Part shown: piece after piece, positions 58,901-61,900 of the stretch | How positions within the stretch are numbered: the stretch's first letter is position 1 | Layout: every line of letters begins with the position of its first letter | From: Escherichia coli | Lineage (GTDB): Bacteria; Pseudomonadota; Gammaproteobacteria; Enterobacterales; Enterobacteriaceae | Reading direction: 5' to 3' (one strand) | Length of the DNA: 64,000 bases | Assembly (NCBI RefSeq): GCF_003991155.1 | Contig: NZ_CP031293.1 | Made by a program: the position numbers

Positions 58901-61900
58901 CGCCGGTGTAAGGGTTAGTTGTACAGCCAGATACCGCCAGAGCGCCACTCACTACGGCGGCAATAAGATAAACACGTTTCTTCATTGTTAATCCTTAATA
59001 ACCTTTTTATTCTTTGCCACGGGTTCCGTGGCGGGAGATTATGCCGCGTGAACATGAAGATTATTCCTGGGAATACTCGGAAATTTGTAAGTAATATTTA
59101 ACTGCTCAATACATCTAACCTTTCAGGAGTCTTCGGTTTGGCCAACTCATCCTCACGATATTCCGTTCTGACTGCCGCCCACTGGGGGCCCATGCTGGTT
59201 GAAACCGACGGCGAAACCGTGTTTAGCTCGCGTGGCGCGTTAGCCACAGGAATGGAAAACTCCTTGCAGAGCGCGGTTCGCGACCAGGTTCACAGCAATA
59301 CGCGGGTGCGATTTCCAATGGTGCGCAAAGGCTTTCTTGCGTCACCGGAAAATCCGCAAGGCATTCGTGGGCAGGATGAATTTGTTCGCGTGAGTTGGGA
59401 TGAGGTGCTGGAGCTCATCCATCATCAACATAAACGTATTCGTGAGGCTTATGGTCCGGCGTCGATTTTTGCGGGTTCCTACGGCTGGCGTTCAAACGGC
59501 GTGCTGCATAAGGCCTCGACATTATTACAACGCTATATGGTGCTGGCAGGCGGTTATACCGGGCATCTGGGGGATTATTCGACCGGTGCAGCACAGGCGA
59601 TCATGCCGTATGTCGTGGGGGGCAGCGAAGTTTATCAACAGCAAACCAGTTGGCCGTTGGTATTGGAACATAGCGATGTCGTGGTGCTATGGAGTGCTAA
59701 CCCACTCAATACGCTGAAAATTGCGTGGAATGCATCCGATGAGCAGGGGCTTTCTTACTTTTCCGCACTGCGTGACAGCGGGAAAAAGCTGATCTGCATT
59801 GATCCAATGCGATCGGAAACCGTCGATTTCTTTGGCGATAAAATGGAGTGGGTGGCACCGCACATGGGCACCGATGTTGCGCTGATGCTGGGGATCGCCT
59901 ATACGCTGGTGGAAAATGGTTGGCACGACGAAGCGTTTCTGGCGCGTTGCACCACAGGTTATGCCGTCTTCGCCTCTTATTTGCTGGGCGAGAGTGACGG
60001 AATAGCGAAAAACGCCGAATGGGCGGCAGAGATTTGTGGTGTTGGCGCAGCGAAAATCCGCGAGCTGGCGGCTATTTTCCACCAAAATACCACCATGCTG
60101 ATGGCAGGCTGGGGAATGCAACGTCAACAGTTTGGCGAGCAAAAGCACTGGATGATCGTCACGCTGGCGGCAATGTTGGGGCAAATCGGCACACCCGGCG
60201 GCGGTTTTGGTCTTTCTTACCATTTTGCCAATGGTGGTAACCCCACGCGCCGCGCTGCGGTGCTCTCTTCCATGCAGGGCAGCTTGCCGGGTGGCACCGA
60301 TGCGGTAGATAAAATCCCTGTCGCCCGCATTGTTGAAGCACTGGAAAACCCCGGTGGCGCATATCAACATAACGGTATGGACCGACATTTCCCGGATATT
60401 CGTTTTATCTGGTGGGCGGGCGGTGCCAACTTTACTCATCATCAGGATACCAATCGCCTGATCCGTGCCTGGCAAAAACCGGAGCTGGTGGTGATCTCTG
60501 AATGCTTCTGGACGGCTGCGGCGAAACACGCGGATATCGTTCTGCCTGCGACCACTTCGTTTGAGCGTAATGATCTCACCATGACCGGCGATTACAGTAA
60601 TCAGCATCTGGTGCCGATGAAGCAAGTGGTGCCTCCACGTTATGAAGCGCGTAATGATTTTGATGTCTTTGCCGAGTTGAGTGAACGTTGGGAGAAGGGC
60701 GGCTATGCGCGGTTTACGGAAGGAAAAAGTGAGCTGCAATGGCTGGAAACGTTTTATAACGTTGCCCGGCAGCGCGGGGCAAGCCAGCAGGTTGAATTGC
60801 CGCCATTTGCTGAGTTCTGGGAAGCCAACCAGTTAATTGAGATGCCGGAAAACCCGGACAGCGAGCGGTTTATTCGCTTCGCCGATTTTCGCCGCGATCC
60901 GCAGGCGCATCCATTAAAAACCGCCAGCGGCAAGATTGAAATCTTCTCGCAGCGTATTGCCGATTACGCTTATCCGGATTGCCCTGGGCATCCAATGTGG
61001 CTGGAGCCGGACGAATGGCAGGGCAATGCCGAACCGGAACAGTTGCAGGTACTTTCTGCTCATCCGGCACATCGTCTGCACAGCCAGCTGAATTACAGTT
61101 CTCTGCGCGAATTGTACGCGGTGGCAAATCGTGAGCCTGTCACCATTCATCCTGACGATGCCCAGGCGCGCGGCATACAAGATGGCGATACTGTTCGGTT
61201 GTGGAACGCACGCGGGCAAATTCTTGCCGGCGCGGTCATTAGCGAGGGAATTAAACCTGGCGTGATTTGCATTCATGAAGGGGCATGGCCGGATCTGGAT
61301 TTAACCGCTGACGGTATTTGTAAAAACGGCGCGGTGAACGTTCTGACCAAAGATCTCCCCAGCTCGCGGCTGGGGAATGGCTGTGCGGGTAATACGGCGC
61401 TGGCATGGCTGGAAAAATACAACGGTCCGGAACTGACACTTACAGCGTTTGAACCACCGGCCAGCTCATAATCCAGGTGGGTAGTTGGGTTTCATCCTGC
61501 CATGCGCAATCGACAATGTGAAAACCCTGCGCCTGGTAAAAATCTATCGCCGGTTGATTTTTTTGATAAACCTCCAGCATCAGATGGGGATGGCGCTGCT
61601 GCACATACTGCATTAGCGCCTTACCAATACCGCGTCTGACGGCCTTCGGTGCGACAAACATTGCAGCCAGAAATCGGCCTTCCATAATGCTGACAAAACC
61701 GAGAAGCTTACCGTCTTCTTCCCAGACCCAGTTTTGCGCGTTGGCAAGATAGGCATCCCGCACCAGCGGAATGCAATCACGCCAGTAATTCGCTTTTATA
61801 AAGGGATGCCCCCAGGTTGTACTTTCCAGCCACAGTTCGAGGATCGCGGGGAGTTCTGAACGTTGCGCTTCCCGAATCATGGTTTATTTCCCGGATAGCA

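Follow-up and report, generated by a model that had tools for sequence, protein, structure and literature searches.

The TTG start of Escherichia coli bisC, an annotated initiation codon viewed through homology, cross-species comparison and ribosome profiling

The bisC frame of the window, by which we mean the whole 64,000-nt stretch of Escherichia coli DNA analysed here (NZ_CP031293.1), raises the question of whether translation begins at a TTG codon or at one of the in-frame ATG codons that lie downstream of it. We conclude with high confidence that this is the ordinary, already annotated TTG start of bisC, yielding a product of 777 residues. Three lines of evidence, namely homology, comparison across species and tetracycline-inhibited ribosome profiling (TetRP), favour the TTG over the ATGs at codons 19, 39 and 61. 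The TTG start of bisC is in itself already known, both from the reference annotation and from published ribosome profiling. We also consider whether the TTG, beyond being the correct start, is maintained by selection.

The bisC locus and its start site

The gene had been named bisC from the sequence alone, a name borne out by a match above cutoff to the NCBIfam family TIGR00509 (bisC_fam; 1091.8 bits with a cutoff of 1017.55, residues 13-775 aligning with positions 1-768 of the 772 in the profile) and by the RefSeq annotation of strain 2016C-3878, in which a CDS called bisC, flanked by yiaD and yiaC/tag, corresponds exactly to the window frame (100% identity, measured over 415 nt). In the same profile search two TorA models stayed under their cutoffs (808 vs 909 and 762 vs 1465). 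Three Pfam domains, Molybdopterin_N (PF18364, residues 12-52), Molybdopterin (PF00384, 56-517) and Molydop_binding (PF01568, 636-741), all scored above their gathering scores, and the three-domain architecture of the bisC family is complete in the window protein. A 415-nt query spanning the start of the gene found matches in 5420 of 5426 complete E. coli genomes, each under a CDS named bisC. The gene is thus the E. coli bisC orthologue, as opposed to the paralogues TorA, TorZ and DmsA.

As in K-12, the window gene sits between yiaD and yiaC, the latter followed by tag. The K-12 copy (b3551, NP_418007.3) is the same gene of 2334 nt, with the same neighbours, TTG start and Shine-Dalgarno (SD) sequence, and differs from the window by strain-level substitutions only; from the end of yiaD through codon 14 of bisC the two are identical. 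BisC is the cytoplasmic member among the S-/N-oxide reductases (PMC12096835), and the same article, citing Ezraty 2005, has the K-12 enzyme reducing biotin sulfoxide or free methionine-S-sulfoxide. The genes bisC and yiaC are convergent and share 32 nt at their 3' ends (61440-61471), an arrangement also annotated in K-12 and in 2016C-3878.

Table 1. Positions of the bisC frame, its start signals, candidate downstream starts and neighbouring genes in the window
Feature	Position	Strand	Remarks
yiaD	58326-58985	-	
In-frame TAA	59099-59101	+	Upstream frame boundary
Shine-Dalgarno CAGGAG	59124-59129	+	8-nt spacer (tcttcggt) before TTG
TTG initiation codon	59138-59140	+	First ATG/GTG/TTG past the in-frame TAA
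bisC CDS (biotin sulfoxide reductase)	59138-61471	+	From ORF listing; 777 aa plus stop, 2334 nt
In-frame ATG, codon 19	59192-59194	+	Annotated start in 2006 (U00096.2); rejected
In-frame ATG, codon 39	59252-59254	+	Rejected as start
In-frame ATG, codon 61	59318	+	
yiaC	61440-61880	-	

No ATG, GTG or TTG lies in frame between the TAA at 59099 and the TTG. The sole near-cognate codon in this interval is a CTG at 59102, directly 3' of the TAA, which has no SD pairing (duplex -0.9 kcal/mol), while the duplex with the anti-SD at the TTG site amounts to -6.9 kcal/mol. The TAA rules out an upstream extension of the frame in E. coli. Some other species have an open frame that reaches farther on this side, and the additional starts that it contains lack an SD and are not conserved. 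The sequence-only reading had identified the TTG as the first in-frame start of a 777-codon frame and had placed CAGGAG ahead of it, both of which agree exactly with the sequence and the ORF listing. Its further claim, that no nearby ATG would keep the full protein, also stands, each downstream ATG costing conserved N-terminal sequence; the ATG at codon 19 went unmentioned there.

The mechanism is that of standard SD-directed initiation: CAGGAG, a strong SD 8 nt upstream, positions the 30S subunit, and fMet-tRNA initiates on the near-cognate UUG. The product is a 777-residue cytoplasmic molybdoenzyme in which a short, variable tail precedes the TAAHWGP core, the tail standing where periplasmic relatives bear a Tat signal peptide. 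Because UUG is weaker than AUG and is here paired with a strong SD, the combination probably sets a modest rate of translation. About 3% of E. coli genes open with UUG; relative to AUG, initiation on the three codons AUG, GUG and UUG spans 10-100% (Hecht et al., bioRxiv 10.1101/063800). According to Belinky et al. 2017 (PMC5622118), weak start codons tend to come with stronger SDs, and the near-consensus SD of bisC fits this tendency.

A promoter and terminator scan returned one weak sigma-70-like site (59014-42) and zero terminators, a result that does not bear on the choice of start codon. This sole sigma-70-like hit (TTGCCA at 59014, GATTAT ending at 59042) is overlapped by a perfect 7-bp inverted repeat, GCCACGG-GTT-CCGTGGC, at 59016-59032 in the divergent yiaD-bisC intergenic region. 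GCCAC-N7-GTGGC palindromes, whose centres vary, occur in at least 35 of 80 species, mostly 122-158 nt upstream of the aligned start. The repeat may serve yiaD or bisC, either as an operator or as a hairpin of the 5' UTR.

The start region in E. coli and across the Enterobacteriaceae

Among 5404 matching E. coli genomes, the 61-mer of the window around the start was present in 4162 and a variant with one change in the spacer in a further 691; TTG and AGGAG are intact in both of these common forms. The remaining genomes, about 550 of the 5404, carry other 61-mer variants and stand outside this TTG tally. Versions of the window 61-mer with ATG or GTG in place of TTG matched zero E. coli genomes. 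In the E. coli variants sampled, every change falls in the spacer or ahead of the SD, CAGGAG itself being invariant, and in seven further E. coli records the CDS starts at the same aligned position. In one strain, ET881 (NZ_CP100890.1, L002:1788-2485), an IS1A element sits between yiaD and bisC, its transposase CDS ending 46 nt before the TTG, and the native bisC promoter region is therefore displaced.

The comparison was widened to 80 loci from one scan of species-representative genomes (82-97% identity to the window in residues 1-260), from genera including Escherichia, Citrobacter, Salmonella, Klebsiella, Raoultella, Enterobacter, Lelliottia, Leclercia, Kosakonia, Kluyvera, Trabulsiella and Franconibacter. 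Each locus was anchored on the codons of [L/V]TAAHWG, and an in-frame start was sought 4-11 nt past GGAG. With the window counted, the SD-linked start is TTG in 76 sequences, GTG in four (Pseudenterobacter L038, Leclercia L053 and L063, and Silvania L087) and ATG in none; in one, L009, it is lost to TTA. The SD hexamer is CAGGAG in 73 of the 80 species and CCGGAG, CGGGAG, AGGGAG or GAGGAG in the rest. Of the 80 sequences with a start, 77 have 6-8 nt between GGAG and that start, and three have 10 nt.

Around these two elements the region is far from constant. The spacer and codons 2-9 vary in both sequence and length from species to species, and the N-terminal tail ahead of the TAAHWGP core, 7-10 codons including the start, changes freely in sequence. 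At the position of codon 19, ATG appears in only 60 of the 80 sequences scored, the others having ATT, ATC, ATA, GTT, GTC, CTT or CTG. Judged from these alignments, the SD and TTG pair alone shows the pattern of a conserved initiation site.

The single locus with TTA (L009:1201-1203, NZ_JAATUR010000010.1, deposited as 'Escherichia coli strain SCPM-O-B-8794') stands against TTG or GTG in the window and 79 species. Its SD is intact and its frame is open throughout the 660 codons covered; it shares ~90% nucleotide identity with the window, and 163 of the 200 coding differences between them fall at third positions. The TTA could be a sequencing error, a recent loss of the start, or a sign that another start, such as the codon-19 ATG, is used.

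Initiating ribosomes and the downstream ATG codons

Nakahigashi et al. 2016 (DNA Res 23:193, PMC4909307) located initiating ribosomes in K-12 by TetRP and compared the sites with the 2006 annotation. Row 52 of their Table S2 places bisC initiation at a TTG that precedes the 2006 start by 54 nt, with depths in three samples of 78.6/80.1/91.1 at the TTG vs 0/0/0 at the 2006 start. The site shows zero difference from the 2014 re-annotation, the change from 2006 to 2014 being -54 nt. As the TTG and the codon-19 ATG are also 54 nt apart, the 2006 record began bisC at codon 19. Since the window matches K-12 letter for letter between the end of yiaD and codon 14, the K-12 result transfers to it. The K-12 literature data thus place an initiating-ribosome footprint at the UUG and none at the alternative AUG, the pattern by which a gene is counted as UUG-initiated. 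Ribosome profiling, which the sequence-only reading had put forward as a check, is therefore already published for K-12 and agrees with the TTG, and a sign of initiation at a downstream ATG was sought without success, TetRP depth at codon 19 being zero in all three samples. N-terminal peptides of BisC were looked for and not found: the corresponding column of Table S2 in PMC4909307 is blank, and bisC has no entry in the supplements of TRAINSPOTTER (N-terminomics) and INRI-seq.

The first alternative is that translation begins at the codon-19 ATG, as in the 2006 K-12 annotation, and that the TTG is merely the mechanical first start of the frame. This ATG is the earliest of the bisC frame, remained in the annotation as the start until about 2014, and is preceded by a GGGGG run that can pair with the anti-SD at -8.4 kcal/mol; the run, however, lies only 3 nt from the ATG, and the TetRP depth there is nil vs 79-91 at the TTG. 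The oligonucleotide that Barendt et al. 2012 (PMC3310771) used as the 'E. coli bisC 5' UTR', GCCGCCCATTGGGGGCCC-ATG, consists of the 18 nt before this ATG and so corroborates the older start. In that study, however, C-rich native 18-mers generally gave poor translation in vivo, with only gsk singled out as active. The corresponding stretch of the window, 59174-59191, is coding in the current annotation (codons 13-18), and the bisC data point of Barendt et al. is therefore no real 5' UTR. The L009 locus, with TTA in place of TTG and a frame otherwise intact, may need another start and so lends the codon-19 ATG some support, but 20 of the 80 sequences scored have no canonical start (ATG, GTG or TTG) at the codon-19 position.

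The residues that a codon-19 start would remove also speak against it. By phmmer, BisC aligns to three solved structures (7l5i, 1eu1 and 1dms) from residues 7-10 onward, TAAHWG included, PF18364 is matched over all 41 of its positions by residues 12-52, and the TIGR00509 match runs from residue 13; residues 7-18 thus align both to solved homologues and to the Pfam domain. Starting at codon 19 would forfeit the conserved TAAHWGP motif together with seven PF18364 positions. Moreover, codons 11-18 (LTAAHWGP) are conserved as protein, with synonymous changes at third positions, across E. coli and the 80 species. A codon-19 start, which we regard as very unlikely, is already largely refuted, and minor internal initiation at this ATG may occur in other growth conditions.

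The same alignments bring out how BisC relates to its periplasmic relatives. Its fold family is that of the Dor/Tor-type reductases (H. influenzae MtsZ/TorZ, 7l5i; Rhodobacter DMSO reductase, 1eu1/1dms; E. coli TorA, 9h4t), to which it aligns over its full length from residues 7-10 with E-values of 4e-277 to 1.8e-197. The periplasmic members have 30-50 extra N-terminal residues, whereas BisC has a 9-residue tail only. In P0001, a representative that is 64% identical to BisC, the N-terminal extra is a twin-arginine signal, MANITRRRFLKG; the N-terminus of the window protein is without an RRxFLK motif or Tat signal peptide.

A start at codon 39 or codon 61, either of which would give a shorter enzyme, is less credible still, to the point of being scarcely conceivable. 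Both codons are ATGs and in frame, but SD pairing is weak or misplaced (for codon 39 -3.4 kcal/mol with zero spacing, for codon 61 -3.9 kcal/mol), and just 3 of the 80 scored sequences carry ATG at the codon-39 position. Either start would also remove most or all of Molybdopterin_N, a domain aligned to solved structures, the codon-39 start alone dropping 27 of the 41 PF18364 positions. Conservation has refuted both already.

Selection on the TTG and what the start implies

Given the TTG as the correct start, it may further be that selection actively keeps it in place across the Enterobacteriaceae, where it would slow BisC synthesis like a brake or respond to IF3 or the state of growth, and that it is no neutral leftover; we treat this as a tentative reading, with the odds against it. 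Several observations are in its favour. TTG is found in 76 of the 81 sequences, from Escherichia to Klebsiella, Kosakonia and Franconibacter, and ATG in none, despite turnover of the spacer, the tail and codons 2-9, while three distant cytoplasmic relatives from metagenomes (38-48% identity) start with ATG. Retention of UUG also runs against the prokaryotic trend of selection toward AUG (Belinky et al. 2017, PMC5622118).

As a comparator we used 71 four-fold degenerate sites in columns of invariant residues from the same 81 bisC sequences. The majority base at these sites is present in a median of 50 and a maximum of 75 of the 81, and the T of the start codon is kept in 77, more than at the best of the 71. 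Counting transversions only is the fairer comparison, because a T-to-C change yields the poor start CTG, and on this count 7 of the 71 sites differ in no more than four species, the number found for the start codon itself (empirical p ~0.1). The 81 sequences are, moreover, phylogenetically related and represent few independent events. Statistical support for selection on TTG specifically is thus weak, and with p ~0.1 and so few independent events such selection is only possible and is unproven. Folding does not add to it either: the 120 nt around the start fold no better than shuffled sequences (z = +0.77), nothing points to a structured regulatory element, and for this reason none is proposed.

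A translational brake of this kind has a possible counterpart in E. coli cyaA, a classic example whose UUG start reportedly limits expression, a result attributed to Reddy et al. in 1985. There the UUG opens the frame of a low-abundance enzyme, and its likeness to bisC serves as an analogy for the translational-brake reading only; unlike for cyaA, our search found no mutational test of the bisC start codon. That UUG and the near-consensus SD are held by selection as a limiter or regulator of the synthesis of a cofactor-expensive molybdoenzyme is, in our estimation, conceivable but rather doubtful.

Whichever way this falls, the TTG start has a practical consequence. Because homology, the 80-species comparison and ribosome profiling all back it, we advise that the 777-residue form be used when BisC is cloned or modelled. 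The start call moved from ATG in 2006 to TTG in 2014, and beyond annotation hygiene the significance is slight. If, on the other hand, the retention of TTG does reflect selection, bisC would offer a convenient natural case of a conserved weak start codon and would rank among the better natural examples of one, a small addition to the known phenomenon of enzymes that keep weak starts.
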